Shown here piece by piece: positions 13,276-56,173 of a stretch of DNA of 64,000 bases; position 1 is the stretch's first letter, and every line of letters starts with the position of its first letter. The notes beneath the pieces were generated by a model, which worked only from the letters and a program-made list of their open reading frames with translations, had not been told where the DNA came from and did not search any database. The DNA is taken from the NCBI GenBank assembly GCA_963847185.1, contig CAWJYV010000010.1, positions 544,001-608,000 on the forward strand, in the 5' to 3' direction. A program made the translations under genes and the position numbers. Source of the DNA: an uncultured Methanosarcinaceae archaeon (GTDB lineage: Archaea; Halobacteriota; Methanosarcinia; Methanosarcinales; Methanosarcinaceae).

Positions 13276-13327
13276 ATTTATTATATATATTCTGGAGTTT
13301 AAAAAAAAATATGGAGCCGTCCCGGGC

Positions 13328-14698
13328 ATGGAAACATATACCAGCATTCCAGAAGACCTGAAGCTTGCCGTACTTGAAAAGATTAAACCCACGGAAGCCG
13401 AAAGAAAAAAACTCACTGGAAGTTCAGGAAGAACTTGCTGCGGAGGTAAAAGCGGCAGCAGAAAAACTTGGTGTATCAGGATATTTTTGTAAAAATGGTA
13501 GGTTCTGCTGCAAGAGGCACCTGGCTTTCAGGCACCCATGACATTGATGTTTTTATCAGCTTTCCTGAGGAAACACCCAGAAAGGATCTGGAAATCAGTG
13601 GCATGGCAATTGCCAGGGAAGTGGCAAAACATGCTGAATATGCCGAAGACCGCCATGCTGAGCACCCATACCTGAATATTGTATTCAAAGGCTTTGACGT
13701 GGACCTTGTCCCCTGTTTCAGGGTTGCTTCGGCCTGCCAGCATCAAATCCGCAGTTGACAGGACGCCTTTTCACAATGAATTTGTAAAAGCCCACATAAA
13801 AGGGCGGGAAGACGAGGTCCTGCTTCTGAAGCAGTTCATGCGCGGAGGCGGAGTCTACGGCTCGGAATTGAAAACCCAGGGCTTTTCAGGCTACCTGACA
13901 GAACTCCTGATCATTCACTACGGCTCTTTTGAAAAAGCCGTAAAAGCAGCCTGTTCCTGGAAACCCGGACAGAAAATAGACATTATGCAGCACTCGAGAA
14001 ATGAAACACGAACGAACCTCTTGTCATGGTAGACCCGACCGACCCCAGGCGGAATGTTGCAGCAGCCCTCTCTCTTGACAAATTCTGCATGTTTATAGAC
14101 TCCTGCCGGGAGTTTCTGAAAAACCCGGAAATCAAATTCTTTTTCCCTGCCTCGTCCCCTGCCTATTGAAGACAAAGAAATTCTTGAGAGAGCCTGGAAA
14201 GCCGAAAAAGCTCACAACTTGCAGTTGTCTTCAAAACCCCTGACGTTGTCGACGACGTGCTATATCCGCAGCTCTATAAAATGGAACAGGCAACAGCTGC
14301 CCTCTTGAGAGAATACGATTTTTCAGTAATCAAAACCGGGGTCTGGTCAGGAAAACCCGAAACCGTAATCATGCTCGAACTTATCTCAGGCACCCTCCCA
14401 AATGTCAAAAAACACATAGGTCCTCCGGTCTGGGTCAAAGACCACGCCGAAAAATTCAAGGAAAAATATGAAGGCGCAGAAAATGTTTTCAGCGGCTATA
14501 TCGAAAACGGGAAGTATGTCTTTGAAATCCAGCGCAAATATCCCACAGCAAAAGGGCTTCTTGAAAACCAGCTTATCAATGCTCACTCGGAAAACAGGTC
14601 GTCAGAGTTTGAATGAGGGCTTTGAGATTATAGAAAATGCTGAGATTTGCAGGCTAAAAGATCCTGATTTCAGGGTTTTCTTGAGGAAATGGCTTTAA
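13328..14698 (+). CDS. cca: CCA-adding enzyme (class I); several frameshifts, probably sequencing errors
   Basis: [55 protein letters not shown] and DPTDP.RNVAAA found across successive frames. Confidence 0.9.
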
Positions 14699-35087: not shown

Positions 35088-36453
35088 TTAAGAAGGGGCA
35101 GAGGCATTTCCTGTCTCGCCTCCCTTAAGTTTCTTCAGTGAATCCTCTGCAGCAGTCCTTACAAATCGATACTCGTCCATGTCCGTGATGATCCGGCTCA
35201 AGCCTTCTATAGCCTGCTGTCCTCCAAGTTCCCCCAGAGCCAGAACTTCCGATTGCCTTACATCCCTTTCCCTTTCGGTCTCAAGAGCCTTAAGGAGAGG
35301 TTCTACAGCTTTTCTGTCTCCAAGTTTTCCAAGACCGTCTGCAGCACTTTTCCTTACTCTGTAATTTTCGTCTCCAAGTAAAGAAATTAAAGTGTCAATT
35401 GCTCGAGAGTCTCCTATCTCTACCAGGGAATTCGCAATATTTTCTCTTACTAACCAGTCTTCATTCTCAAGAGTGGCAATAAGGGAGTCCACGGCTTCAG
35501 GATCTCCAATGCTCCCCAGAGCTTCAATGGCAGCATTCTGGAGATTTTTGTTCTTAGCCTGGAGGAGCCCTTCAAGAGAAGGTATAGCTTCTTTACTTCC
35601 GATCCTTCCAAGAGAGCGTGCAGCAGCTTCCTGTACCTCGGATTTATCATCCCCAAGGGCATTAATCAGAGGCTGCTCTGTCTGGGCAATTTCCTCAGGT
35701 TCTTTAAATTGGCTCAGTGCTGAAGCAGCTTCCTTTCGCACCTCTGGAGATTTATCTTTCAGCAATTTAATTATAAAAGGAACACTAGCAGGGTCCCGGA
35801 TATATCTCAGGGCACAAATGCTGTTGATACGGATATCCGAATCCTTGCTGTCTAGCAGTCTGATGAGTTTTTCAACGGCTTTTTCATCCCCTAAGTTCCC
35901 AACAGCAATTGCTGCGGAATCTCCAAGTTCCCTCTCACCAAACAGCTCGATGAGAGGGTCAGCAGCTTTCGGGTCTCCTATTGCTCCTAAGGCAAATATG
36001 ACTTTATCGCGCACTTCATCATTATCGTGATCAAGAAGCTCAATAAGCGGATCTACGGCTTCCGCAGCTTTCAGCTCCCCGAGAGCCTCGGCTGAATTCA
36101 TACGGACTTCAGACTCAGGATCATTGAGGGTCTCTATAAGTGGTTTTGAAGCCCTTGGATCTCCTATCCTTCCAAGAGAAAAGGCGGCGATGCTACGTAC
36201 CTGTGGATCCTCGTCTTTTAAATCTCTTTATTAGAGAATCCACAGACGGTTCTCCTATCTCGATAAGCGCATAAGCTGAAGCATAAGCAATTTCCTGGTC
36301 TTCATCTCCGAGGTTTCGGACTAATTTGTCTATCCTGGATTCGAGAGGGTCCTGACCAAGACAACCAGCACAGATTCCGGAAACAAAAAGCAAGAGAAGT
36401 AAAATTTTTGTATACTTACAGCTGGTAAGTTCATCTCGCTTTATCATATGCAT
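35088..36453 (-). CDS. Putative lipoprotein with HEAT (PBS-lyase-like) repeats; frameshift near 36220
   Basis: ATG overlaps the upstream TGA; signal peptide with CAGCLG; repeated AAxALGxIGD.AVxPLI units. Confidence 0.8.
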
Positions 36454-41377: not shown

Positions 41378-41439
41378 GGCGCCTGAAACGGGTAATATCC
41401 CTAATTTGACAGATTCTGCTAATTAATACAGTATTTTCT

Positions 41440-41681
41440 TAGAAGCTGTCTTAAAATTCAAACCATTTCTACATTTGGATAATAGGCATCGTTGATTTTA
41501 AACTTAGACCGTAAATTTATTACATCGGACTTGATCGCTCAAGTATAAAACCAAACACATTAGGCGTTATGGTTAAAATTCACATTTTAGATATTTAACA
41601 GTTTAATGCTACCGTTTTTCAGTTCAAATGGATAAGTCCGATCCAATTGTAGAATCAAATTTAATTTTAAGACACGCTCTA
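41440..41681. mobile_element. Non-autonomous MITE-like element (~240 bp)
   Basis: Imperfect ~40-bp terminal inverted repeats: left tagaagctgtcttaaaattcaaaaccatttctacatttggat; right (reverse complement) tagagcgtgtcttaaaattaaatttgattctacaattggat. No ORF inside. Confidence 0.7.
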
Positions 41682-41715
41682 AGAGGGTCACTGACTTCAA
41701 ACCGCTTGACTGTTT

Positions 41716-41832
41716 TTATGTTACGGTTACAAGTAAACCCCACATTGTATGATTACCAAATACTATGGCAAGAGCCATAATAATGAAAATGAAAATGACA
41801 AAAATTGCTTCGTTTGAAATGCTTTCGGTCAT
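41716..41832 (-). CDS. 38-aa small membrane peptide (not in ORF track)
   Basis: GGGAGA RBS; MTESISNEAIFVIFIFIIMALAIVFGNHTMWGLLVTVT*. Confidence 0.45.
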   Translation of the reverse strand: MTESISNEAIFVIFIFIIMALAIVFGNHTMWGLLVTVT

Positions 41833-42285
41833 GATATCTCCCTGTTGAAAGAGAAGTCACTGGCTTATTAAACCCAATAAATCGCCCACATTAAAAAACA
41901 AAATACGACGACATAATATACCAATTCTTCTGGTGTCACTTTATCTTCTCTTTAAGTCTTTCCGTAATAGCCATCGCGGCTGGCGTTTGCCTGTTAAGCA
42001 GTCCATTAATTGTCCAGTCGGAATTTAAAGGGCGCGAATTAGCCCATTTATTTTTATTATGTAATGCAAATAGGTCAAAACATTGTTACTGAACTACCAC
42101 GGGCTTTTAATGCGATCATGTCGGAAAATAAATTAGCCGGAAGCCTGCCCCGCGAAATATTAAGTTTTTTAATTAGTGGCTGTCCTTGAATGTAGGAGTC
42201 TGGATGGAAAAAATGGTTTATAGATGAAAATCCAGAGTTTATAGAAACATTGCATCAATGGGGTCAAAAACAGTAATGGGAGTGG

Positions 42286-42813
42286 GTGAAAATGGAGAAA
42301 TTTTCAATCTTAGCTTTGCTTTTATGTCTAACATCGTTAACAGGGGTAACTGACGCCGCTACAGTAACGGTTACGCCATCATTTCGTTACAACTGTTGTG
42401 GTGCTGACGGGCACCGGATTATTATGGTCAATTACAACAATGCAACGAATCCTTCGTACAGTGACCTCGTTGCTGCAGTAAAAGCTGATAACACAGACGC
42501 TCACATATACGGAATTAATACGTACAAATGTACTGATTACGCTGAAGAAATACACAATAACCTTGAAAAGAGAGGGATGAGATGCGGTATTGCAAGTGTA
42601 CAGTTTAATACAGGGAAAGGTCATGCTGTGAACGTCGTAAATACTACGGATAAAGGCAATGTGTATGTCGATTGTAGTGGAACAGAAGGAAACCCTGGAA
42701 TGGATACGATTGCAACAATAGAAGTCGGGAAGAAGTATACTATCACGCCAATTGACAACTCAGATTCAATTGTGAGAAATAGAATTGTTAAAAGTGTAAG
42801 AGTGTATTGGTGA
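42286..42813 (+). CDS. Secreted transglutaminase/papain-like cysteine protease domain protein
   Basis: Signal peptide; YKCTDYA, GHAVN and YVD fit a Cys-His-Asp triad. Confidence 0.65.
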   Translation: MKMEKFSILALLLCLTSLTGVTDAATVTVTPSFRYNCCGADGHRIIMVNYNNATNPSYSDLVAAVKADNTDAHIYGINTYKCTDYAEEIHNNLEKRGMRCGIASVQFNTGKGHAVNVVNTTDKGNVYVDCSGTEGNPGMDTIATIEVGKKYTITPIDNSDSIVRNRIVKSVRVYW

Positions 42814-42976
42814 GGTAATTGATTCAGTGACCATTCTAAATAGGGTGTTAAAACGGCATCATCAAAAGCAATTCAAGAAATGATATATAATGCATTGGAA
42901 GGAACCGAGATTGGAAGATTAAGAGACCTTCACGGTAACACGGATTATGCTCTGATTGACAGAGAAAAATAATCGA

Positions 42977-43231
42977 ATGTCTTATCGAGCAGGATGCATC
43001 AAACTCTTTGACCCATCAAACAATCTAGTCTTGTCTAAGTCCTGCCAAAATATTCAATTGTGCCTCTGGTTTTCGATTCGTGCAAATCCTCAAGTTGCGC
43101 GTGTGGAGCTCAATTTATCTACTTCTTCAAAAACAGTCTTACATTAAAATCTCTTTTTGAAACAGCCCAAGGATATTGATTCCTTCATGATACAAATCCT
43201 TGCTAAGTATGGGAAAGGCTCCAAGTTTTGT
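42977..43231 (+). pseudogene. Decayed small gene (in-frame TAA at 43145), homolog of 46575..46833
   Basis: RAGCIKLFD..NNLVLSKSCQN..CLW, then KTVLH*NLFLKQPKDIDSF..KYG in one frame. Confidence 0.55.
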
Positions 43232-43288
43232 GTGATTTATGCAGACAACTCTAACGAAAACATTGACTCTGAAATCGCTTTTAATCGT

Positions 43289-43447
43289 TTACTCTTTCTC
43301 CGTAGGCATTTGTTTAACGATTTCGAGAATTTCCCGGCAAACCTTAACTTCCGCCTCTGCCTCAGCCAAGTGTTTTTCTGCATTGATTAAGTTGTGTTCA
43401 TAAGTGATTAGTAAATTAGCTCTTCTGGATTCAGTTAGTAATTCCAT
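43289..43447 (-). CDS. 52-aa coiled-coil small protein (not in ORF track)
   Basis: AGGTGG RBS; MELLTESRRANLLITYEHNLINAEKHLAEAEAEVKVCREILEIVKQMPTEKE*. Confidence 0.55.
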   Translation of the reverse strand: MELLTESRRANLLITYEHNLINAEKHLAEAEAEVKVCREILEIVKQMPTEKE

Positions 43448-44253
43448 TTCATACCACCTAACAGAATTAAGACTGGACTGAACTTATATTGAGCGAACCA
43501 CGACAATAATATTGACAGGGTTATAGGAACAAAGCAATAGAACGGACGCTGTGACGAGCTTATAATGTGATCAAGCTGGAAACAGTGACCACTACGAAAG
43601 AAGGTCACTGGAAAAAAGTATTATTGAAACATATCCTTGTTTATCCCCAATTTGCCTTGTTAAGCTTTCAACAGCGATCTGTTGAACAAGGTCACTGAAG
43701 AATTCGAATGTTAACTATGTTCTTTCTACCCCTTACTTCTGTTATATTACTATCACTTCCAATAAAGAAAGTTCCAGTTTATACAGGTTTAAAAAGAGTA
43801 CCTTTTCGACCCAGATGATGGTTCTCCTGAATCAAGTGTTAAATGTTCTACATTCATTCGTTGTACCCCATCATCAAAATTCCAATGTCTTTTTCGATCT
43901 GATTACTTGACCGAACACTGGTTACAAAAACCCCATCGACAAACATTTGGGTAATGCCGTTTTTCGATTCAAAATCGAATATGTTACCGAACATTATATG
44001 TTTGTACATTTAGTTACTCTCACCCTGGATTTGACTATATGCTCACTGAATGTATCACTAATTCAGATCGAGTATCTCTATCCGTTTACACCTTTCTTCA
44101 ATAATGTACTCATTTGTAAGTATAAGCTACGAATTGAATCATTATTTTTACTCAGTAATGTATATGTGGATGTCATAGATTCAAAGCCTATTGAGTCAGT
44201 AACTTTCTGCAAACGTGTCGAACGTGGTCGCTGACTCCTGACCGCTCATTATA

Positions 44254-44433
44254 TCAATGACCCTCTTGAGATCCACTTTTTTGAATTGCAACATCTGCCG
44301 GACTTTTCATATTCGACAGAAACTCGATTAAATAATTGAGAAATTCTATTTCCACGTCTGCTCTTGATTTCAAAAATTCTGCGCTCCTTAGTCTTTCATT
44401 GTAATCAGCTGGTATTTCTCTTTTCATATCCAT
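44254..44433 (-). CDS. Possible 59-aa small protein or fragment
   Basis: MDMKREIPADYNERLRSAEFLKSRADVEIEFLNYLIEFLSNMKSPADVAIQKSGSQEGH*; lies between two palindromes; no clear RBS. Confidence 0.3.
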   Translation of the reverse strand: MDMKREIPADYNERLRSAEFLKSRADVEIEFLNYLIEFLSNMKSPADVAIQKSGSQEGH

Positions 44434-44889
44434 ATATCGTCTGATTAAAAATAGTCAAATTGGAATATATAGAAAGCTCACAGGGACAATTATTTTAATT
44501 CAGTGATAAGAACAGTAGAGAACTATGTTACTGAACTAATGTAGAATTTCTAATTTAACCACATGGAAAAATAGACTGAATGTGGAAATTGTCCTACTCA
44601 TTATAATTTTAAAAGAATAAATCGATAAACGCTTTTATAATCTCCAGACACGCTTTTAGTATGTTTTATGAGTATTCGAGGTTGCTTTTCTTTCTGCCGT
44701 TTGTCGCACTATTTCTTTTCCTTGCCATCTTATTTGTGATGGCAATGAGGTTATGAATGTTAACTTTTTCTTGCTTTTCAGTGACCTTCCTGAATCGATA
44801 AAGGTTACTGACAAAAAAGCAGAGAACTATGTTTCTGAATAAAAAGAGTAATAAGGAACGTGGAGGGAGGGGAGGTGGTTATCCCCAAG

Positions 44890-45273
44890 TTACCTTCTGT
44901 TTCCGTGGTACTTGTTATAATCGCTGTACCATTTTCCATAATTTTTGTTCCATTTCCCGTAATTGTTGTTCCACTTCTTATAATTGTTTAACCATTTCAT
45001 ATACAGGCTGTACCAGTTGTTGTACTCTTTGCCATGCTTCTTCTCTCTGTCCCACTTTTTCTTCTCCCCTTCCCACTTTTTCTTCTCTCCGTCCCATTTT
45101 TTATTCTCATTTCCCCACTTTTTCTTCTCCCCATCCCATTTTTGTTTCTCGTTTCCCCACTGGCTCTCACCTTTCTGAGGTGCAGCATTTACTGATGCAA
45201 CTGTCACTGACAGCACAAAACAAATTGCAAGCAAAATACCCATTATTTTTTTTATTTTCAGCATATTTGCCAC
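44890..45273 (-). CDS. Secreted Trp/Lys heptad-repeat protein
   Basis: AGGA RBS plus GTG; signal peptide; (GEKKKWD)-like 7-aa repeats followed by W/Y-periodic repeats. Confidence 0.8.
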   Translation of the reverse strand: MANMLKIKKIMGILLAICFVLSVTVASVNAAPQKGESQWGNEKQKWDGEKKKWGNENKKWDGEKKKWEGEKKKWDREKKHGKEYNNWYSLYMKWLNNYKKWNNNYGKWNKNYGKWYSDYNKYHGNRR

Positions 45274-45313
45274 TCCTAAAATTTGTTAACCCCATTATTA
45301 ATACTAATATTCA

Positions 45314-45351
45314 GGTTAATCTGGATTAATCTGAATTTATCCAGATTAACC
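45314..45351. promoter_or_regulatory. 13-bp perfect inverted repeat upstream of the Trp-repeat gene
   Basis: ggttaatctggat-N12-atccagattaacc. Confidence 0.45.
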
Positions 45352-46002
45352 CAGATGCTTCTAAATGCACTATTTTTTTTTAAATTGTCTCCCAAATTAT
45401 TTTCATTTCGTTTTTTAATCGTTTTTCAACTACCCGTCAGCTGCCGGAGTTGATTTATTTTTGTCTTGCCGACTATCTTCGACTTAACAACCATAATATT
45501 GACCAAATTAAATAAAAAGATACTTATTATAACTACATATATAAAAGTAAGACCATTATTAAAATAAGTGTTATTAAAGTGTTTATTGGAAAAAAGAGGA
45601 TTCGTAGATACTTAGAGAACAAGCTATTGGTCTTTAAAGGGTTGATAGGCATAAAATAAGCGTTTGAACCTTTATTATTTGTGACCTTCCTGAACATAAG
45701 AAGAGGTCAATGACTCGGAACAACGAAGGTCAAACAACGAAGGTCAAACACCAAAGCGCAAACCCTAGATATAATACAATTTCAACGAATTCATCGAATG
45801 TAATATCAAACCCCTCCTTCAATCTGTCCAATACAACATTTCGATAAACGTGGAGTTTGAACTTATAATGGACGCATGGAGAAATTTATTTAAATCAAGT
45901 AATAGGAACAATGATACCACTTATATAATATTTAATGACTTTTTAGCTGTTCACATACATTAATAACTAATGATGTCCATCAATATTCATGAGTTGAAAA
46001 CT

Positions 46003-46233
46003 ATGGAAAAAATAGTCAAAATAGTAACTTATCTCTTAGCCGCTATAGGGCTCGCTTCTATTGTAAAACATATACACACCATGCGCTCAAAAGAAGGTTG
46101 TTGTTTGTGTGGTTGGCATAAAAAGAAAGAAGAAGAGGAAAAACCAACTGGTGCAACTGCATCGCATAAAACGAAAGAAGAAGAGGAAAAACCAACTGGC
46201 TCAAGATATGGTTCCAATCCGGTGAAATACTAA
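46003..46233 (+). CDS. Small single-TM protein, paralog of 2801..2983, with internal duplication
   Basis: YLLAAIGLASIVKHIHTM..KEGCCLCGWH; HK.KEEEEKPTG twice; ends GSRYGSNPVKY. Confidence 0.7.
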   Translation: MEKIVKIVTYLLAAIGLASIVKHIHTMRSKEGCCLCGWHKKKEEEEKPTGATASHKTKEEEEKPTGSRYGSNPVKY

Positions 46234-46574
46234 TATCCTGAATTCATTTTTATTCTTTAATCGAGTCTGGTTAACATTGCCGGTCAGGTATCTCTGGTAG
46301 CAAGCAGCTCCTCGTGAGCGCGCTCGTGAATGATATCAGGCAGTTGGAATCCATCTCAGTGTGAAGGAGACCTTTGTGGAGTTCTTGATGAGCTCGACGA
46401 GCTCGGGATCATCCCAGATCCTCTAACAATCCAGGCACTAACCGGGGCGTCCATCTGCTGGGATGATGATGCTTTTTGGGATGTTTCAGCCAGTAAAGTA
46501 TATGCGTAGGGTGGGGGCGTGCCGGCAGGATTCGTGCAGGTCTGGGAAGATACAATCCAGGATACCTCAAGAAA

Positions 46575-46833
46575 ATGCCAAAAAGAGCTGGCACTATCAA
46601 ACTGTACGACAGAGACAACAATCTAATCCTGTCCAAATGTTGCCAGAATACCCCTGCTTGTCTCTGGCTCACGATTTCTGCATCTAATCCCTGCAGTCGC
46701 GCTCGTGTAGTATTATATCACTACTTTTCCAAAAACAGTTTGACATTTAGTTCTTCTTTTGAATCAGCCCTTTGATATTGATTCTTTCATTGAAACAATA
46801 TACAGGAAGTATGGACAAGTTTCCCCTTTTTGA
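46575..46833 (+). pseudogene. Decayed small gene, homolog of 42977..43231
   Basis: RAGTIKLYD..NNLILSKCCQN..CLW; after a frameshift KTV*HLVLLLNQPFDIDSF..KYG. Confidence 0.55.
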
Positions 46834-46839
46834 GTAGAT

Positions 46840-47114
46840 TAGCGGGAAGAATTACCCTTTCAGACCTCAGGAGCAAGGTAAAGTATGGGGAGATAAACAA
46901 AAAAATAGGAGACATAGCTACCCGAAACCTTGCAGTTGCTTATCCTGACGAAAGCCTTGACATTATCCTCAATCGTCTTGCAGTAAAAGAAATAGGACGG
47001 CTTCCGGGAGTTGACAGAGAGGATAAAACAAAACTTCTTGGCCTGATCACTCGGAGCGATATCGTAAATTCGTATAACAAGAAAGTTGTCGAAAAATTCC
47101 GGGATCCATACTGA
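46840..47114 (+). pseudogene. C-terminal CBS-domain fragment (resembles a ClC chloride-channel tail)
   Basis: GRITLSDL...VAYPDESL...IGRLP.VD...LLGLITRSDIV; lacks N-terminal part and a credible start. Confidence 0.65.
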
Positions 47115-47223
47115 AAAACAGTAAACCTAAAAAGATCCCCTTGCAAAAAAGAATAGAACTAGAACGGATATATCCATATAACGGATATATTCTTGTATAT
47201 TCCTTACAAATGGTGGGGGCCTT

Positions 47224-50200
47224 ATGTCTGGAATTAAAAGCAGCTTAAGCGGGGAACTGGAAAGGTACCTGAGAAATATAATACTGGAGGATAGGGGTGA
47301 ATTATGTAGTTTTTACATAGAACTATCTGCCAGAGAAATGTTACCAATCACGCGCCGACTTTTTGAAGAAAAAGTTTCCCTTCCTCATGAGTTCGAACTC
47401 TCGGAACTTGTGGAAAAAGAAAAACATTTAATGATTTACGGAGAAGCAGGCCAGGGAAAAACAATAACCCTTAAATGGCTGAATACTGCCTTTTCCAGGA
47501 AGTTTCTTGAGAAAAAAGAAGGGTATATTCCAATTTATGCAGCCCTTGATTCCTATGTAAAAGGCTCTTTTTACGATAATTTGAAAGCAAGTGCAAAGAA
47601 AAAGGGTATTTCTGAGCCCAATTTCAGGAAGTTACTCGATGGAAGAGCTCTTTTTTTATTAGATGGGCTGGATCTACTAACGCCTGCTGAAAATTTTTCC
47701 CCTTTTGATGAGATCTCAGATTTTATTTCCGAGTATGAAGATTGTCGATACGTTATTACTTCAAGACCAGGGCCTTTTGGCAGTATAAAAAGTACGTTTG
47801 CACTGTCAGAGCTAGAAAAATTGTCAGATGAAAAAATAAGATATTTCATAGAAAAGCAAGTTCCGAATAAGAGACAGGCGAAGCTTTTGAAAGCCCGAAG
47901 CCTGAATGGAATACATTCAAAATCAATTTTAAGAAATCCGCTACTACTTACTCTCTGGATCAGAATTTCAATTGCTCGAATGGAAATGACAGAAAAAACA
48001 AGAAATAATCCAAACTTTATATCCCCCGACCTTATATCTTCTGAATTTATATCTTCCGACCTTATATCTTCCGAATTTATATCTTCCGACTTTACATCCT
48101 GCGATGTTGCTCCTTACGACTTTGTTTCCTCCAATCGGGCAGAATTATACCGAATTTTTATCTCTGAGCTTCTTAAAGACCCCCGACTAAGAGAAGATTT
48201 TTTAGATTCCGAGAACTTTCTCCTCTCAAAAATAAACGATAGGAAAACAAATTCTAAAAACACAACCTCTGAAAAATTGACTTTTGAAAGGGCAGATCTA
48301 AAAAGAGTAGATCTTGAAAATGTTCTAATGAACCTGGCCTTCATAATTCAGTGCAGGAACAGGATTTCATGTAAATATAGTTACGCTCTTAAGGTGGCAG
48401 AAGAGTGTGTACGCAGTACTTCTGGAAGAGTAAAAGCCAGAAACCTTCTTCACGCCTGTTTTAAGCATGGGCTTCTTACCAGAAAGGGTTCTGAAGTAAG
48501 ATTTGGGATAGACAGATCTTTTCAGGAATATTTTGCAGCTCTAAAGCTGAAAACATACTTTGAAAGCGGAGTGGATATCTCTGAAGCATTCAAGCATCCG
48601 AGATGGGAAAATGTAGTCTTATTTACTTCGGAACTTGTCGAATCAGGAGAGGAACTGGTGGACTCTATAGTTTCAAGCGGAAATTTATATCTTGCCTCAA
48701 AATGTGCCATGAAAGCCAGTCCTGAAACGAAAGAAAAATTATGCACACTTCTTTCCGGGAAACTCGATAGTAGATATATGGTGGAGAAAATAAGGGCAAT
48801 CCAAAGCCTTGGAAGGCTGGGAGCCTGTGGAATAGGAGCTAATTCGGGAGCACTTGAAGACGAAGATATAGGAGTTAGAAGAGAAGCTGTAAGGGTTCTT
48901 AGGGAAACAAAATCAGAAATAGCACTCTCCTTTCTTGAAGCTGCACTTAGAGATGAAGATTACTCTGTGAGGATAGAAGCTGTAAAGGCTTTAGGCACTA
49001 TAGGATCCGAGAAAGCTGTGGAATTGCTCTCAAATACATTTGAGGATAAAATCCGTGCTGTCCGTCTTGAAGCAACCGATGCGCTGGCGCAGATCGGATC
49101 AGAAAAGGCACTTGAAGTCCTTGTTTCCGCACTTGGGGCAAAAGACGATTTTGTTCGTTTTGGAGCTATAGGAGCGCTTGGCAGAGCAAACTCCCAGAAA
49201 GTGGCTGAGGCCCTTATAAAAGCATTTAAGGAAGAGGACAAGCTTACTCGACTGGGAGCTGCCGAGGCTCTGGGTCAGATGAAATCGGAAAGAGCTGTTG
49301 AACCTTTTGTAGACGCTCTGGGAGATAAAGATGAGTTTGTACGATGGATAGCTACAAAGACTCTTAGAGAAATAAAATCTGACAAAACCTACGATACATT
49401 CATCAATATGCTTGGGGATAAAAGCCGCTTCGTCCGTCGGGAAGCCGCAAAGGGGCTTGGTGTGCCAGGGGCCGATATAACACTTGAACCTCTCGTTTCT
49501 GCGCTTTCTGATGAAGATGAATATGTAAGAAAAACAGCCGCGGAATCTCTGGGGGAAATAGGGTCTGAAACAGCTGCTAAAACTTTGATAAATAAGCTTA
49601 ACGACAAAAGCCATTTCGTCCGGCTGGAGGCTGCAAGATCCCTTGGAATGATAAAAGTCAGGAAAGCTGCTACCCCTCTTCTTTTTGCACTGGGAGATGA
49701 AAATCATTTTGTAAGAAAGGAAGCTGCAAACGCACTCGGACAGCTGGAATCAGGAAGAGTTTTTGAGCAGCTTGTTTATGCTTTTAAGTCAGGAGATCGC
49801 CTTAGAAGGCAGGGAGCAGTAAGGGCCCTGGGACAGAAAAATCTGGATGGGATTCCGGACAGGATCTCGGATAGAGTCTTCGATTTTCTTGACAGTGCTC
49901 TTAATGACGAAGATAAGTTTGTACGGAAAGAAGCAGCAAAAGCTCTGGGAAATATCTCTGAAAGCAGATCTGAAAGAGCTTTTGAATCCCTGATTAATGC
50001 CCTTGATAATGAAGATAGTGAGGTCAGGAGGCTTGCAGCCGAATCCCTGGAATTTTTTAACTCTGAAGAAGCCGTTCCTCAACTGATATATGCACTTAAG
50101 TCCGAAGATGCAATTGTACGAAGGTCTGCAGCTAAAGCCCTTGATCAAATACACTCTAAAAAAGCCCTCAAGCCCTTGATAGATGTTTTAATTTTCGACA

Positions 50201-50679
50201 ACGATGGTTCTGTGAAAGAAGAAGCTGCAAGAGCTCTTGGAAAACTAAAAGCTAAAAAAGCTGTAGAGCCTCTTATTGACGCTCTAATGGATGAAAATAA
50301 TGAAGGAAGATGGGGAGCAGCAGAAGCTCTGGGCCGGCTTAAAGCTGAAAATGCAGTCGATAATCTCATCATTGCTCTTGAGGATGCAGATGAATTCACC
50401 CGGCTGGCTGCTGCAAAAGCCCTGGGGAGAATAAAATCAAAAAAAGCAGTAGAACCCCTCATCAGCACACTTTATGATTGGAACCGCTTCGTAAAAGCAG
50501 AAGCTGCAGGCGCTCTCAGTGAAATCTGTACGAAAGAGGATGAAGCACAATTGAAAGCTTTACTTGACTCAGAATACGAATTTGCAGCAAATCTTGCCTT
50601 TGAGATCCTGGAAAGAATCGAAATAAAGGAAATATTAAAAACCAGGCTGTTTTTAGATTTATATAAGGAAAAAGATTGA
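47224..50679 (+). CDS. NACHT-type STAND NTPase with C-terminal HEAT repeats (NLR-like)
   Basis: Walker A GEAGQGKT, Walker B LFLLDGLD, ITSRP, NPLLL, SFQEYFAA; about 19 HEAT repeats. Confidence 0.88.
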   Translation: MSGIKSSLSGELERYLRNIILEDRGELCSFYIELSAREMLPITRRLFEEKVSLPHEFELSELVEKEKHLMIYGEAGQGKTITLKWLNTAFSRKFLEKKEGYIPIYAALDSYVKGSFYDNLKASAKKKGISEPNFRKLLDGRALFLLDGLDLLTPAENFSPFDEISDFISEYEDCRYVITSRPGPFGSIKSTFALSELEKLSDEKIRYFIEKQVPNKRQAKLLKARSLNGIHSKSILRNPLLLTLWIRISIARMEMTEKTRNNPNFISPDLISSEFISSDLISSEFISSDFTSCDVAPYDFVSSNRAELYRIFISELLKDPRLREDFLDSENFLLSKINDRKTNSKNTTSEKLTFERADLKRVDLENVLMNLAFIIQCRNRISCKYSYALKVAEECVRSTSGRVKARNLLHACFKHGLLTRKGSEVRFGIDRSFQEYFAALKLKTYFESGVDISEAFKHPRWENVVLFTSELVESGEELVDSIVSSGNLYLASKCAMKASPETKEKLCTLLSGKLDSRYMVEKIRAIQSLGRLGACGIGANSGALEDEDIGVRREAVRVLRETKSEIALSFLEAALRDEDYSVRIEAVKALGTIGSEKAVELLSNTFEDKIRAVRLEATDALAQIGSEKALEVLVSALGAKDDFVRFGAIGALGRANSQKVAEALIKAFKEEDKLTRLGAAEALGQMKSERAVEPFVDALGDKDEFVRWIATKTLREIKSDKTYDTFINMLGDKSRFVRREAAKGLGVPGADITLEPLVSALSDEDEYVRKTAAESLGEIGSETAAKTLINKLNDKSHFVRLEAARSLGMIKVRKAATPLLFALGDENHFVRKEAANALGQLESGRVFEQLVYAFKSGDRLRRQGAVRALGQKNLDGIPDRISDRVFDFLDSALNDEDKFVRKEAAKALGNISESRSERAFESLINALDNEDSEVRRLAAESLEFFNSEEAVPQLIYALKSEDAIVRRSAAKALDQIHSKKALKPLIDVLIFDNDGSVKEEAARALGKLKAKKAVEPLIDALMDENNEGRWGAAEALGRLKAENAVDNLIIALEDADEFTRLAAAKALGRIKSKKAVEPLISTLYDWNRFVKAEAAGALSEICTKEDEAQLKALLDSEYEFAANLAFEILERIEIKEILKTRLFLDLYKEKD

Positions 50680-50761
50680 AAAAACACAAGAGAGAGTAAA
50701 ATTTAGAGGATAAATAAACGACCAAACGGCCTTATCCTCCATACTGAATTGTTTCTGTCAC

Positions 50762-50815
50762 ACCCGAATTCCGCTTCGGGAGCACGGGGTCCTTTTCGCT
50801 TCGCTCAAGAGGACT
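50762..50815. repeat. Double-hairpin GC-rich intergenic element
   Basis: cccgaa-ttccgc-ttcggg followed by gtcct-tttcgcttcgctcaag-aggac. Confidence 0.55.
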
Positions 50816-50900
50816 AATTTATGGCTATAACAGTTATTTTCAGTCAAGAGACATAAATTCTAGATCATTTGACCCCTACAACCTTATTCACTATATTGGG

Positions 50901-50942
50901 TCGTTCCTGTTACGCTCGACGCAGGAGAGCGGTCTTTCCCGC
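50901..50942 (+). repeat. Hairpin element copy
   Basis: 26-bp core identical to 27395-27420. Confidence 0.8.
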
Positions 50943-51028
50943 GCAAAATAGAAAGAATTAATTTAGATGGTTTCAATAAGGGAGCTGATCGAGAAATAAA
51001 GAAGTAAATTTTTACCAACAGGGATAAA

Positions 51029-54000
51029 ATGGTTATTTCAGAATTAGCTTTAGGTTTTCTTACTAACCTGATATATGATTCTTCCAAGAAAATCCCTAAA
51101 GAAATTTTTGATACTTACTCGAAAGTATATGAAAAGGCAATTGAAGAGTTTTCAAATAAGAATTATAAATTGAATGGAATACAAATTGATACTTTTTTTC
51201 ATCAGAAAAACGTGGAAACAGCAATCGAAGAATACCTGAAAAACCCGGATAAAGCTTGATTGTTCAAATATTTTAATTCAAGAGTTTTTTGAATTATTCA
51301 GTGAGGAAGATTTCTCCCGCGAAGATGCAGACTTAATCTTAAACACTTTTTTGAAATTCTAGATGCTGAGATTGAGAAATATCCTGAACTTATAATATAT
51401 CTTGATCATTACTTAGCAAAACAAACATATGAAAAGTTCAAGAGACAAATCAAGGAGTTCATGAGCTATCTCAAGAATCAAAGAAATATCTCAAACAGTT
51501 CAGGAAATACACAAAGTGGTTAATGGAAGTAGAGCAGATAAAAGTAGAAAAGAATTAGATGCAGATTTCGATGAATCAATAAAAAAATACTTGAACAAAA
51601 TAATAGATGAAGAAGGCAGAACCGAAATTAGTGAAGTATATACCGAACTTTCAGCCAAAGAAATTTTGCCAATAACCCTCAAATTCCGCGATGAGGAAAA
51701 CGATAAAACACAAGAATTTGAGGTTCTTGAGCTTGTTGAAAAAGAAGAAAAGCTTATCATTTCCGGGGAATCAGGTTCTGGAAAAACAACTACACTTAAA
51801 TGGTTAAATTACACCTTTGCCACAAAGTTATCTTGAGGGAAAAAACGAAAACATTCCCCTGTACATTGAATTAAATTCTTACATAGGTGAAGAGGTTCAT
51901 AAAGAAGCCTTTTGATGCATACGTCACGATGAAAGCAGAAGGGAAAGAATATCAGAGGACACTCTTAAAAACGATACTTAAAGGAAAAGCAATTATTCTT
52001 CTCGATGGCTTTGACCTACTTTCACCTACCGATGAGTTCTATCCCTATGACAAAATTTCCAATTTCATTTCCGAATACAGCAACTGCAGATTTGTTATTT
52101 CTTCAAGACCAGGTTTTTTTGAGAGTATAAAAAGTAGATTTCAAAGTTTCGGAATTGGAAAAACTAACCGATGAAAAAATCGAGATATTCATAAATAGCT
52201 ATGTTTCAGAATAAAGAACTAGAAAATATTCTCAATAGATAAAATCCTTGAGCAATCAACAGTTAAAATCTATATTTTCAAACCCAATGATGCTTTACAT
52301 CGCCATCAAAGTTGCAATGGAGAGAAAAGACAAGTCTGATGACTTACTGCCTTCAAACCGTTCTGAATTGTATGAAGCTTTTATTTCTACTCTTTTCAGT
52401 CATCAAGAAAAAAAAGGAAAAATCTCCATGCAGACAGAATACAGATTGAGAATGCTCTTACTGATCTATATTTTAAACTTCAGTGCAGGAATGAAGTTTC
52501 ATGCAAATATTCTGAAGCTCTAAATATTGTCAAAAAAAGCTCTGAAGATTCTATATTCAGAAAAATCACTCCAGGAAATTCTTGAAGATTGTTTCAAACT
52601 TGGACTTCTTAATAAAAAATGATTCTCATGTATCATATGGAATCCACCAGTCTTTTCAGGAATATTTTGCAGCTATAAAGTTAAAAGAGCTTTTTGAAAG
52701 TGGATTTGATGTATCAGAGGCTTTCAGTCATCCAAAATGGGAAGAAGTCGTGATATTTACCTCTGAAATGTGAATTCGGATTTAATTGACGAATTTATTG
52801 ATTCAATGATTTTAAAAGGTGAACTTTTCCTAGCTTCAAAGTGTGTAAATAAAGCAAGTGATGAAATAAAAGAAAAACTGTGTGCTTTACTTGCTGATAA
52901 AATGGATTCTAAGTATAAATTGGAAAAAATAAATTCGATTGAAAGCTTGGAAAGAATTGGAATTATCGGAATCAGTATAATTACCAAAGTCCTGAAAGAT
53001 GAAGAATCGAAGATGTGCGGTGGAATGCGGCAAAGGCACTTGGAAATATAAAATCAGAGAAAGCAGTGCAGTTACTAATAAACGCATTGAAAGATGAAGA
53101 TAAATATATGCGGCGGAATGCGGCAGAAGCACTTGGAAAATAAGATCGGAAAAAGCAGTCCAGCCACTAATCAACGCACTGAAAGATGAAAATGAAGATG
53201 TGCGGCAGGAATGCGGCAGAGGCACTTGGAAATATAAAGTCGGAGAAAGCAGTGCAACCACTAATCAACGCATTGAAAGATGAAAATCCATATGTGCGGC
53301 AGAAGTGCGGCAGAGGCACTTGGAAATATAAAGTCAGAGAAAGCAGTCCAGCCACTAATCAACGCACTGAGAGATGAAGAATTCGTATGTGAGGGGAAGT
53401 GCGGCAAAAGCACTTGGAAATATAAAGTCGAAGAAAGCTATGCAGCTGTTAATCAATCTACTGAAAGATGAAACTACATATATGAAGATGGAGTGCATCA
53501 GAGGCACTTGGAAATATAGAATCAGAAAAAGCTGTGCAGCCGTTAATCAATGCACTGGAAGATGAAGACTATCATTTGTGCGGTGAGAGTGCGGCAGAAG
53601 CACTTGGAAATATAAAGTCGGAAAAAGCTGGTCCAACCATTGATTAATGCACTGAAAGATGAAGATTATGATGTGCGGGAACGTGCGGCAGAAGCACTTG
53701 GAAATATAAGTCGGAGAAAGCGTCCAGCCACTGATCAACGCACTAAGAGATAAAAATGTATGTGAGGGAATGCGGCAGAGGCACTTGGAAATATAAAATC
53801 GGAGAAAGCCGTGCAGCCACTGATCAACGCACTGAAAGATGAAAATTCGTATGTACGGCGGAGATGCGGCAAAGGCACTTGGAAATATAAAATCGGAGAA
53901 AGCCGTCCGACCACTGGTCAATGCACTGAAAGATGAAAATGAATGTGTACGAAGGAGGGCGGCAAAGGCACTTGGAAATATAAGATCGGAGAGAGCTGTG

Positions 54001-54401
54001 CGACCGCTAATCAACTGCACTGAAAGATGAAGATAAATATATGAAGTGGAAGTGCAGCAGAGGCACTTGGAAATATAAAATCGGATGAACAGCTGTGCAG
54101 CCACTGATCAATGCATTGAAAGATGAAGATAAATATACGGCGGAACTGCGGCAGAGGCACTTGGAAATATAAAGTCCATAGAGAATACCGATATGCAAAA
54201 GAGAAAAACTTACCAATTCTTGTTTTCATCAAAGGTGAAAGGAATATAGAACATGAACAGGGAACTGAAACACTATTTAGGGAGATTGAATCTGATGACT
54301 TCAAGTACAAGAGATTCAGAAACGTTATTGAACTAAGGAATGAAGTTAAAGAATCTCTTAAAAAACTGCTTCAAGAAGAAGGTAAATTTTTGAAAAAATA
54401 A
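51029..54401 (+). pseudogene. Second NACHT-HEAT NLR-like gene with DUF4062-like C-terminal segment; heavily frameshifted (true decay or sequencing error)
   Basis: Fragments carry GESGSGKTT, ILLDGFD, ISSRP, NPMML, HQSFQEYFAA and AFSHPKWE, collinear with 47224..50679; 93-bp HEAT array; tail HREYRYAKEKNLPILVFIKG. Confidence 0.8.
52990..54176 (+). repeat. About 13 x 93-bp coding tandem repeat (31-aa HEAT units)
   Basis: Recurrent gcacttggaaatataaa(a/g)tc...ccactaatcaacgcactgaaagatgaa; consensus [31 protein letters not shown]. Confidence 0.9.
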
Positions 54402-55129: not shown

Positions 55130-55783
55130 TCAAATCGATGGTGGTAATTCATCTTCTTGCAATAGCTCTGAAATAAACAAGGAACAGTCCGGAAGCTTCT
55201 CAGTATCTACCATAATCAAGTTAAGGTAATAAGGACCTCCTCGTTTTATATCTAGAGGAACGGGATCAACAAATTCCAGGACATCAGCAGGATGTTTGAG
55301 ATAGAAACCTTCAAGTTCGGGATTATTCAAGTTTTCCTTGCTGGGAAGGCCTATAGCATAGATTGTGGAATCTAAAAGAGTTTCGGTTTTTGCATCCAGA
55401 ATAAGTGCAAAAAAGGAATATTGTCCGTGAGGAAGATCAAGCATGTATTTAGTATCCACATCAAGCTCGGATAATAAAAGGTTCTGCGTTCCCTTTTCAT
55501 ATACTATCAGAAGCAATACTTTGTCCTAGGAAAGTAATTCCTGAACCGTGTCAGGTAAAAAAAGGTTTCCGAAAATCAGCTCATACAGATCATACGAAGC
55601 CCCAAAATCATTTCTTATAAACAACAGACCGTCCTCGCTCAACAGAGAATAACCCAGATTACCTTGAAGATCGACTATCGGGTATTTTTTTGCAGAAGTC
55701 TCTTTCCAGAAAATATCAATAGCTTCCTCATCCATTCGAGACAAAAGGTGCATGCATGCTCCTACAACAATTTCTTTCAACAC
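55130..55783 (-). CDS. Hypothetical protein interrupted by one in-frame TAG (55526-55528)
   Basis: The two ORF-track pieces share a frame: ...VQELLS(TAG)DKVLLLIVYEKG...; purine-rich RBS before GTG 55783. Confidence 0.7.
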
Positions 55784-56173
55784 TAAACCCCCTCTAATGC
55801 CATAGTTCAACTAATAATTCAACTACGATCAATTTTCTGTTACGAAATAAAAGCGCAATGAATCCCCTATTAAAACTGAAGTTACAGAGTATTATTTCTG
55901 CAGTTTATATTTTACGATTATTATATAAATTTATAACCTTTAAAATAAGATTTTAAGAATACAAAGTTCAAATAATAAAAATCTTAATTTTAAATAGTGA
56001 AAAATGAGATTATAAAAAATAATTTAAATACCAAGTTGGGAGCCTAAGCTCTTAGCTGACAAAGCTCTCAAAGAATAACCTTTTAGCTGGTGAGTTTCCC
56101 GAAAGATAAATTTATAGCTTCCGAAATCCCTAAAAATAAACCATTAGCTGGTAAGCTCCCTAAAAATAAACCA

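Follow-up and report, generated by a model that had tools for sequence, protein, structure and literature searches.

Does a gene that lies in pieces in its genome assembly still encode a receptor, and if so, what would that receptor recognize? The question is raised by a 64,000-nucleotide (nt) stretch of DNA from an uncultured Methanosarcinaceae archaeon, referred to here as the window (G000:C10:544001-608000), the source genome of which comprises 4.04 Mb in 10 contigs and is 99.83% complete. Two neighboring genes in the window, gene 1 (intact) and gene 2 (broken), appear to encode paralogous, NOD-like receptor (NLR)-like proteins of the genus Methanosarcina, of the kind known as STAND NTPases (ATPases of signal transduction that have numerous domains). 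The answer proposed here has two parts: the breaks in gene 2 are likely artifacts of a low-quality assembly patch, and the gene 2 family, which joins a NACHT module to HEAT units that vary at six positions, is moderately likely to consist of immune sensors. We give even chances to both parts being true together.

Gene 2 as assembled and its intact relatives

The gene 2 region was used as a DNA query across 41 genomes, the source genome (G000) among them. Long matches were obtained in six congeners, with DNA identities of 83 to 84% for G013 and G023, 82% for G005, and 70 to 75% for G001, G024, and G007; the complete genomes G004, G006, G012, and G014 gave merely weak matches to the NACHT region or to short repeats. 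In five of the six congeners, the ortholog is a single open reading frame (ORF), encoding 1153 aa in G013, 1252 aa in G007, at least 1121 aa in G001, 762 aa in G023, and 720 aa in G024. The exception is G005 (estimated to be 84% complete), in which genes 1 and 2 are both fragmented (L025, G005:C11:113000-125000). The pta-like ORF of this genome spans 282 aa, compared to 333 to 334 aa in other genomes, and an error-prone assembly is one possible cause. By comparison with these orthologs, the following features of gene 2 were delineated in the window:

51029..54401, + strand: gene 2, the broken paralog, in about 19 or more frame pieces (ORFs and ortholog comparison)
51029..51550, + strand: N-terminal all-helical domain of ~170 aa (MVISELALGFLTNLIYDS...), common to the 37 clusters of the family
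51551..52991, + strand: NACHT core plus helical/winged-helix region (motifs and comparison to G023)
52992..54176, + strand: alphaRep-type HEAT array with a 93-bp (31-aa) repeat, present as 12 complete units and a thirteenth, partial one of 60 nt (Tandem Repeats Finder [TRF] and alignment)
54177..54401, + strand: remnant of a C-terminal DUF4062 domain, the last ~75 aa (...REYRYAKEKNLPILVFIKGERN...; alignment to G013)

The longest plus-strand ORF between 51 and 54.4 kb is only 106 aa. Compared to the intact G023 ORF, positions 51029 to 53005 carry 18 indels, of which 16 shift the frame and about ten lie outside base runs, and the array carries 22 indel events of 1 to 2 nt, for a total of 38 small frameshifting indels across gene 2. 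A preliminary description of this DNA, made from its letters alone, had presented gene 2 as a collinear paralog of gene 1. Gene 2 is not an open frame, and the number, order, and residues of its units are untrustworthy. The same description had counted about 13 units of 93 bp. The count is borne out by the 12 full units and the partial one. With the unit boundaries used here, lengths vary from 89 to 97 nt, and not one of the 12 complete units measures exactly 93 nt. Over 52992-54173/54176, TRF reports a period of 94 with 12.6 copies, 80% matches, and 4% indels.

At 54176/54177, ~360 bp are absent and the array is joined out of frame to the end of DUF4062. What is absent encodes, in the orthologs, the C-terminal cap together with the initial two thirds of DUF4062. 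Over 216 nt, the remnant can be aligned without an indel to the G013 ortholog at its 3' end, and it shares 82% amino acid identity over 74 aa; searched alone, it matches no Pfam family, and a complete domain is lacking in the window copy of gene 2. With the indels removed, the motifs GESGSGKT, LLDGFD, SFQEYFAA, and AFSHPKWE are all readable. Scored singly, the NACHT pieces of the window reach 17.1 and 17.4 bits, below the cutoff of 26.7. The array pieces reach 31.5 to 49.4 bits for HEAT_2, and both HEAT_2 and HEAT_PBS score above their cutoffs. In a dicodon-based scan for frame-shifted coding chains, gene 2 was the most fragmented locus genome-wide, with chains of 15 and 4 pieces. The source genome possesses a tRNA-Pyl gene. 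Pyrrolysine, programmed frameshifting, and another genetic code were rejected as causes, as the breaks are indels of ±1-2 nt and not stop codons.

To describe the family, we used the 37 clusters that, across the first 640 aa of the G013 protein, are at least 60% identical to it, drawn from 120 listed homologs. Their members are 710 to 1362 aa long (some clipped by contig ends), carry the label Methanosarcina in their sources, and are patchily distributed among genomes of that genus. Their domain order consists of an N-terminal helical domain, NACHT, and alphaRep-type HEAT units, with or without a C-terminal DUF4062. In the intact G013 and G007 orthologs, NACHT scores 51.0 and 41.7 bits, above the cutoff, as does HEAT_2, and DUF4062 (PF13271) is found at the C terminus with 63.3 and 64.9 bits (cutoff, 24.7). 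Between 0 and 18 HEAT units were parsed per protein. The N-terminal helical domain (~170 aa) is present in 37/37 clusters, is specific to the gene 2 subfamily, and matches no Pfam family. Its AlphaFold2 model is composed entirely of helices with a mean pLDDT (predicted local distance difference test) of 60.5, and the best fold match (Z 7.4), to generic helical bundles, is uninformative. NNH2 (0.89) and NNH5 (0.84) were considered as identities for this domain; they serve as leads only, a Bell/HeLo-like fold is a further conceivable candidate, and no assignment is possible.

Origin of the breaks in gene 2

Two explanations of the broken frame were weighed. Under the first, the patch of assembly in which gene 2 lies is faulty, and the real gene is probably intact in the organism. 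Under the second, gene 2 is a true recent pseudogene that lost the cap and most of DUF4062 by deletion and then gathered small indels, its mutation spectrum being rich in them, while gene 1 stayed functional, a course of events that we consider unlikely. The substitutions speak first. Once the indels are taken out, the 5' 2 kb of gene 2 is free of stop codons and agrees with G023 at 516 of 666 codons. The window copy has 85 substitutions of its own, with a nonsynonymous-to-synonymous (N:S) ratio of 45:39, compared to 169 (86:82) for G013 and 189 (107:79) for G023; a lone "stop" in the window tally is a by-product of single-step counting and corresponds to no real stop. Judged by these counts, the window lineage appears to have neither surplus substitutions nor relaxed selection despite its 38 indels. 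A decaying gene would have had to acquire more indels than substitutions, in a lineage with half the substitutions of its sisters and the same N:S, and without any nonsense substitution in its 5' part.

The second line of evidence comes from elsewhere in the window. The archaeal CCA-adding enzyme gene (cca; 13302-14692, + strand) contains 10 single-base indels, 8 of them insertions and 2 deletions, and the corresponding ORFs are intact in 5/5 sister genomes searched (461 to 505 aa). Once its indels are removed, cca is identical to the G013 sequence at 399/461 aa (87%) and free of stops. The source genome has no other PF09249 locus and no class II CCA-adding enzyme (PF01743), and 51 of the 64 predicted tRNA genes lack an encoded CCA; cca must therefore function in the living organism. 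Because an essential gene cannot function in ten pieces, the assembly must hold local patches of indel error, and a single-copy gene that cannot be dead is damaged in the same manner as gene 2. Indel densities are also alike, at 0.72% in cca, 0.81% in the 5' part of gene 2, and 0.88% in the array framework. Housekeeping loci outside these stretches look undamaged, with an unbroken ribosomal protein operon and rRNA copies that show no more than 1 gap between them in up to 5 kb. It is the absence of stops, the selected-looking substitutions, and the same kind of indel in an essential gene that lead us to favor an artifact.

Several observations weigh against an artifact, and some of them speak for true decay. 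The ~360-bp gap, with its out-of-frame junction, is a structural change and not a small-indel error, and 0/37 homolog clusters end likewise; the missing segment may still belong to the same assembly problem. Within the array, the indels concentrate in the 21-nt variable segment of the unit, which holds 14 of the 22 events in 23% of the aligned bases. This is a density about 6 times higher (binomial p = 6e-5) that uniform random error fails to explain, and a faulty consensus built from reads mis-assigned between units would fit it. Neighboring genes are damaged as well: the ClC channel gene is reduced to its last 102 aa (46815-47111), and a gene downstream carries an in-frame TAG at a codon that is GAA in G013. 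Of 12 copies of one insertion sequence (IS) element, two show a similar mix of changes (one has 34 substitutions and 13 indels, the other 33 and 9), and nine of the other ten retain the full 328-aa ORF. Accessory genes, for a GT4 glycosyltransferase and for a DUF1616 protein, account for other frameshift-dense loci of the genome, and gene 2 itself is absent or shortened in several sister species. Finally, a search of sequencing runs yielded no reads of the source organism (no run shared half or more of the words of the sequence, and no RNA run matched), so that we infer the artifact from the assembled sequence. Four metagenome runs contain relatives that are ~90% identical and lack the window indels at 51346, 51823, 51963, and 52138; these fit artifact and decay equally and are neutral.

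Four further approaches were tried and set aside. Whole-window blastn against G013 for frameshift mapping, at ~78% identity, introduced too many compensating gaps. In a tree of six taxa, no branch is shorter than that of the window copy, but this copy looks mosaic between G013 and G023, which disqualified branch length as a test. A count of ORF deserts (141 stretches of ≥1.5 kb without an ORF of ≥130 aa) was too unspecific as evidence of error. A comparison of indel:substitution ratios among IS elements yielded no result, as the IS element is not multi-copy in four complete sister genomes.

A few stretches deserve separate mention. The downstream gene with the TAG is a conserved gene of 225 aa on the minus strand (window 55130-55810), in which the TAG lies at about 55526-55528 and small indels also occur; a pseudogene, a sequence error, or read-through may lie behind it. 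In place of the missing part of the ClC gene, the region 41380-47220 holds ~5.4 kb of mostly strain-specific DNA, and an element of ~250 bp near 41432-41686 is multi-copy in sister genomes. The frameshift-dense stretches elsewhere (G000:C2:173102-175471, C10:72998-74184, C5:117298-118426, and C7:662748-663889) comprise a DUF1616 gene at a contig end, the GT4 glycosyltransferase gene, and one IS element in two copies; each may be a further patch of error or a genuine pseudogene. For assembly patches with about 0.7-1% indel errors, the practical consequence is that pseudogenes, unit counts, and single variant residues found there should not be taken for biology.

Variation within the HEAT units and the match to alphaRep

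Since single units of the window are unreliable, variability was measured across the family. Units were parsed with a profile built from nine G013 units, and those with internal indels or fewer than 25 matched positions were discarded. The sample comprised 94 units from the 9 of 37 proteins in which mean pairwise unit identity is ≥0.64. Mean pairwise difference is 0.44 to 0.69 at unit positions 5, 6, 7, 10, 11, and 14, 0.34 to 0.43 at positions 23, 27, and 31, and no more than 0.29 at the remaining 22 positions. The preliminary description had placed the differences in the segment KDE[xxx]VR[xx]AA[x], which is where these six peaks fall, and the per-codon comparison agrees that variation is not spread evenly along the unit. 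Of the variant segments that it quoted, DKYMRRN, NSYVRGS, DYDVRER, and NECVRRR can be read as they stand, and NSYVRRD needs a frame correction.

The proportions of nonsynonymous (pN) and synonymous (pS) differences set the same positions apart. In the window array, with indel- or stop-bearing codons and the partial thirteenth unit left out, the six variable codons give a pN of 0.330 and a pS of 0.613 (pN/pS, 0.54), and the rest of the unit gives 0.068 and 0.360 (0.19). The corresponding values for the G013 array are 0.394 and 0.485 (0.81) and 0.122 and 0.398 (0.31). At the variable codons, pN is 3 to 5 times higher and pS is similar. Six positions of the unit are much freer than the rest; positive selection is not demonstrated by these values.

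Contrary to what had been proposed, the array is neither nearly identical from unit to unit nor homogenized. Mean nucleotide identity is 0.81 between units of the window array, against 0.76 to 0.78 to units of G013, G005, and G023, and pS between units is 0.36 to 0.61. Near-identical DNA units of the fungal type, expected under concerted evolution, are not found in the window array. The high synonymous divergence between units argues that the framework is kept by protein selection rather than by recent homogenization of the DNA, and ongoing concerted evolution of the window units seems to be weak. Elsewhere in the family, blocks of two units are present in identical copies within P0014 and within P0028, suggesting that units were duplicated recently, and a few identical units occur in P0002 and P0006 as well.

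The unit has a well-studied artificial relative. The G013 array aligns in register to alphaRep chains in the Protein Data Bank (PDB), with E values of 1e-40 to 4e-106, and to MTH187 (PDB 1te4) with 4.6e-13. At E ≤ 1e-10, 24 PDB sequences were matched, 19 of which are alphaRep-type chains or fusions. In alphaRep, positions 18, 19, 22, 23, 26, and 30 of the second helix are variable, a choice meant to imitate how side chains are distributed in the natural family; these positions belong to the concave face, which, according to the same report, binds the target in two solved complexes (PMC3754942). They correspond to unit positions 6, 7, 10, 11, 14, and 18 here, and five of the six (6, 7, 10, 11, and 14) coincide with the natural peaks, in agreement with the earlier suggestion that alphaRep is randomized at equivalent positions. 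The position-specific variability of this class of repeat is, as such, already known; its fusion to a NACHT module is less familiar.

Gene 1 and its relationship to gene 2

Gene 1 lies immediately upstream, and its features in the window are as follows:

47224..50679, + strand: gene 1, a NACHT-HEAT STAND NTPase of 1151 aa (single intact ORF)
47428..47862, + strand: NACHT NTPase core of gene 1, residues 69-213 (Pfam and Walker motifs)
48014..48098, + strand: coding minisatellite in gene 1, 15 bp, in frame, 5.7 copies (TRF)
48853..50619, + strand: array of diverged HEAT-like units in gene 1, residues ~544-1132 (HEAT_2 stretches)

Its NACHT domain (PF05729) scores 42.4 bits over residues 69-213 against the cutoff of 26.7, which places the protein in the family. 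The motifs read GEAGQGKT (Walker A), LLDGLD (Walker B), SFQEYFAA, and AFKHPRWE, so that the core motifs named in the preliminary description for two collinear paralogs were all located in both genes on the plus strand. HEAT_2 matches total 440.6 bits over 12 stretches. The array has 16 unit matches, of which 9 were parsed free of indels; their mean pairwise identity of 0.42 bears out the view that these repeats are diverged. Just 68 aa precede Walker A, and among Pfam families only P-loop and HEAT-type matches were obtained, with no effector domain. An NLR-like tripartite architecture that includes an effector is therefore found in the gene 2 subfamily, through its C-terminal DUF4062, and not in gene 1.

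Gene 1 is collinear with its G013 ortholog, sharing 64% amino acid identity over residues 1-1192, and is 60 to 71% identical to 9 named Methanosarcina proteins. On this comparative evidence, it is an intact NACHT-HEAT protein that is kept genus-wide in Methanosarcina. The minisatellite adds ISSEF/ISSDL repeats to the helical stretch that follows the NACHT core; this insert is missing in 8/9 aligned orthologs, and the ninth bears another low-complexity insert. Elsewhere in the window, a stand-alone HEAT-repeat ORF of 337 aa (35088-36101, - strand) is 30 to 38% identical to the gene 1 and gene 2 arrays.

Adjacent, collinear paralogs on the same strand, 349 bp apart in the window, invite the idea that genes 1 and 2 form a sensor/helper NLR pair, as had been suggested. 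Both genes occur at the same site in G013, G023, G007, and G001, and gene 1 has no effector domain, whereas gene-2-type proteins have additional N- and C-terminal domains. The comparative data point the other way. At the loci of G004 and G011, gene 1 has been retained with no gene 2 beside it, the two are separated by 1 to 3 unrelated genes where both occur, and four complete genomes gave only the weak gene 2 matches noted above. The intervening genes are URO-D-like, PP-loop-like, or endonuclease/exonuclease/phosphatase-family (EEP) nuclease genes or a transposase-sized ORF. We therefore regard a sensor/helper pair as highly improbable; genes 1 and 2 appear to be neighboring paralogs, and their distribution gives no sign of mutual dependence. 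The spacer between them contains, at 50900-50958, a dispersed repeat of ~40-60 bp with many copies in most of the genus genomes searched.

In G013, G023, G007, G001, G024, G004, and G011, gene 1 is preceded by ackA, pta, a flavoprotein gene, and the ClC channel gene, in that order; gene 2 comes after gene 1 in only some of these genomes. A conserved upstream gene of 608 aa was considered as an effector partner of gene 1 and was rejected, as it encodes the ClC chloride channel with CBS domains.

Predicted function of the gene 2 family

To our knowledge, very little is known of innate immunity in methanogens. From the architecture of the family, its position-specific variability, and the relatives of its domains, we infer a mechanism with three steps: ligand binding, oligomerization, and NADase activity in an antiviral role. 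The hypervariable face of the HEAT solenoid (positions 5, 6, 7, 10, 11, and 14) would bind a foreign protein, probably a viral one. Binding would release oligomerization driven by NACHT, and oligomerization would in turn switch on an effector; in proteins with DUF4062, the output would be hydrolysis of NAD+ (nicotinamide adenine dinucleotide) in a response of the abortive-infection type.

An immune role is moderately likely on several grounds. Bacterial NACHT proteins are reported to protect against phage, and 2026 preprints describe DUF4062 as a Toll/interleukin-1 receptor (TIR)-like NADase in antiphage defense. One of these proteins, "Swarozyc" (KpSwz), is reportedly activated by a phage portal protein. 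The G013 DUF4062 aligns to KpSwz (PDB 10wc) with an E value of 1.8e-6 (phmmer). Judged by the last 25 residues, 11 of the 37 clusters carry a DUF4062 tail, with one more clipped inside the domain, and DUF4062 fusions to STAND and HEAT modules are reported to be defensive. The variable positions map onto the face that is described as the binding surface of alphaRep complexes, and gene-2-type proteins are patchy in occurrence and widely varying in length.

The rival view is that NACHT-HEAT proteins are cellular STAND NTPases for signaling or scaffolding, outside immunity, and that the variable positions are merely an unconstrained solenoid surface. We hold this to be somewhat unlikely, and the last three observations in particular (the DUF4062 tails, the mapping onto a binding face, and the patchy distribution), together with the antiphage role of bacterial NACHT proteins, speak against it. 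There is nonetheless evidence in its favor, and the same evidence weighs against an immune sensor. Gene 1 occupies a fixed core-genome site next to the ClC channel gene and pta-ackA in all seven loci examined and lacks an effector domain. The neighbors are pta, ackA, the flavoprotein, the ClC channel, a URO-D-like protein, and a cupin, with no defense island or nearby defense genes among them, and PADLOC run on the locus gave only generic HEAT and weak P-loop matches and no specific defense model. At the variable codons, pN/pS is below 1 in both the window and G013, and values of 0.54 to 0.81 fit relaxed constraint; the same positions are described as varying in the natural HEAT-like family behind the alphaRep design. 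As for the output, 15 of the 37 clusters end in a short "...LFKDEKFLKT"-type tail without DUF4062, and NADase activity therefore cannot be general to the family. Moreover, the Glu of the TE motif of KpSwz, a possible counterpart of the published catalytic E97, faces a His in G013 (TH), with a Glu two residues on.

Taken with these points, the suggestion in the preliminary description that gene 2 is a diversifying recognition receptor stands in part: the variable positions and the alphaRep match are features of the family, and a diversifying regime is not indicated by pN/pS values below 1. A bolder version of the immune-sensor proposal is that the Methanosarcina receptor is a natural counterpart of the alphaRep binder library, with interchangeable 31-aa units that differ at six positions of the face and retarget it to new archaeal viruses, units that are gained, lost, and duplicated between strains, and signaling through the C-terminal NIR/DUF4062 NADase. 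We put this forward tentatively, as a possibility that we would not yet expect to hold in full. If the family does sense viruses, an archaeal NLR would be recognizing its targets with the same scaffold that engineers chose for artificial binders. This would offer a structural template for reading receptor specificity directly, and the DUF4062 NADase would be at work in a new domain order.

Comparison with known systems

In the titles and opening abstract lines of the literature on archaeal NACHT-HEAT NLRs and on Methanosarcina NACHT proteins, no description of this NACHT/alphaRep-type HEAT architecture was found. According to a preprint on bacterial amyloid signaling, Methanosarcina is rich in NLR-like architectures, which are rare among the other archaea. 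The closest relative of the array is the alphaRep/MTH187-type HEAT-like family (PBS-lyase-type, thermostable), which has the same 31-aa unit, LKDED xx VR xx AA x ALG ... AV.PLI.A. Two differences separate them. Position 30 of alphaRep is randomized, whereas the equivalent unit position 18 varies little here (0.19) and position 5 varies instead (0.44). In addition, alphaReps are artificial, stand-alone binders, whereas here the array is natural and forms one protein with a NACHT NTPase and, in some members, with DUF4062.

Fungal NLRs of the HET-E/HET-D type likewise combine NACHT with a repeat array in which unit number differs between strains and few surface positions vary. Their repeats are highly conserved, however, in contrast to the 81% DNA identity, synonymous divergence of 0.36 to 0.61, and pN/pS below 1 seen here.

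Bacterial NACHT (bNACHT) and Avs STAND NTPases are described as having a central P-loop module followed by C-terminal repeats, as in the gene 2 family, and in both the repeats could sense the ligand. The bacterial proteins use TPR, WD40, or leucine-rich repeats and an N-terminal effector, whereas the proteins described here are archaeal, use HEAT-like repeats, and place the identifiable effector C-terminal of the repeats. Human NWD1, NWD2, and TEP1 (DUF4062-NACHT-WD40) also unite DUF4062 and NACHT in one repeat protein, and a preprint notes that DUF4062 adjoins NACHT in NWD1 and TEP1; these eukaryotic proteins differ in domain order and in their WD40 repeats.

The nearest systems by content are those in the recent preprints on DUF4062. 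The Avs2 protein PsAvs2 is described as an N-terminal DUF4062 (NIR) followed by a STAND module and TPR repeats, and "Vulcan" as DUF4062 (NIR) fused to HEAT repeats. As presented there, the NIR, STAND, and HEAT building blocks of the gene 2 family recur across PsAvs2, Vulcan, and KpSwz taken together, and a C-terminal NIR is not seen among the Avs, Vulcan, and Swarozyc arrangements described. In those systems, NIR is N-terminal; in the gene 2 family, all three blocks are combined in one protein, with NIR at the C terminus.

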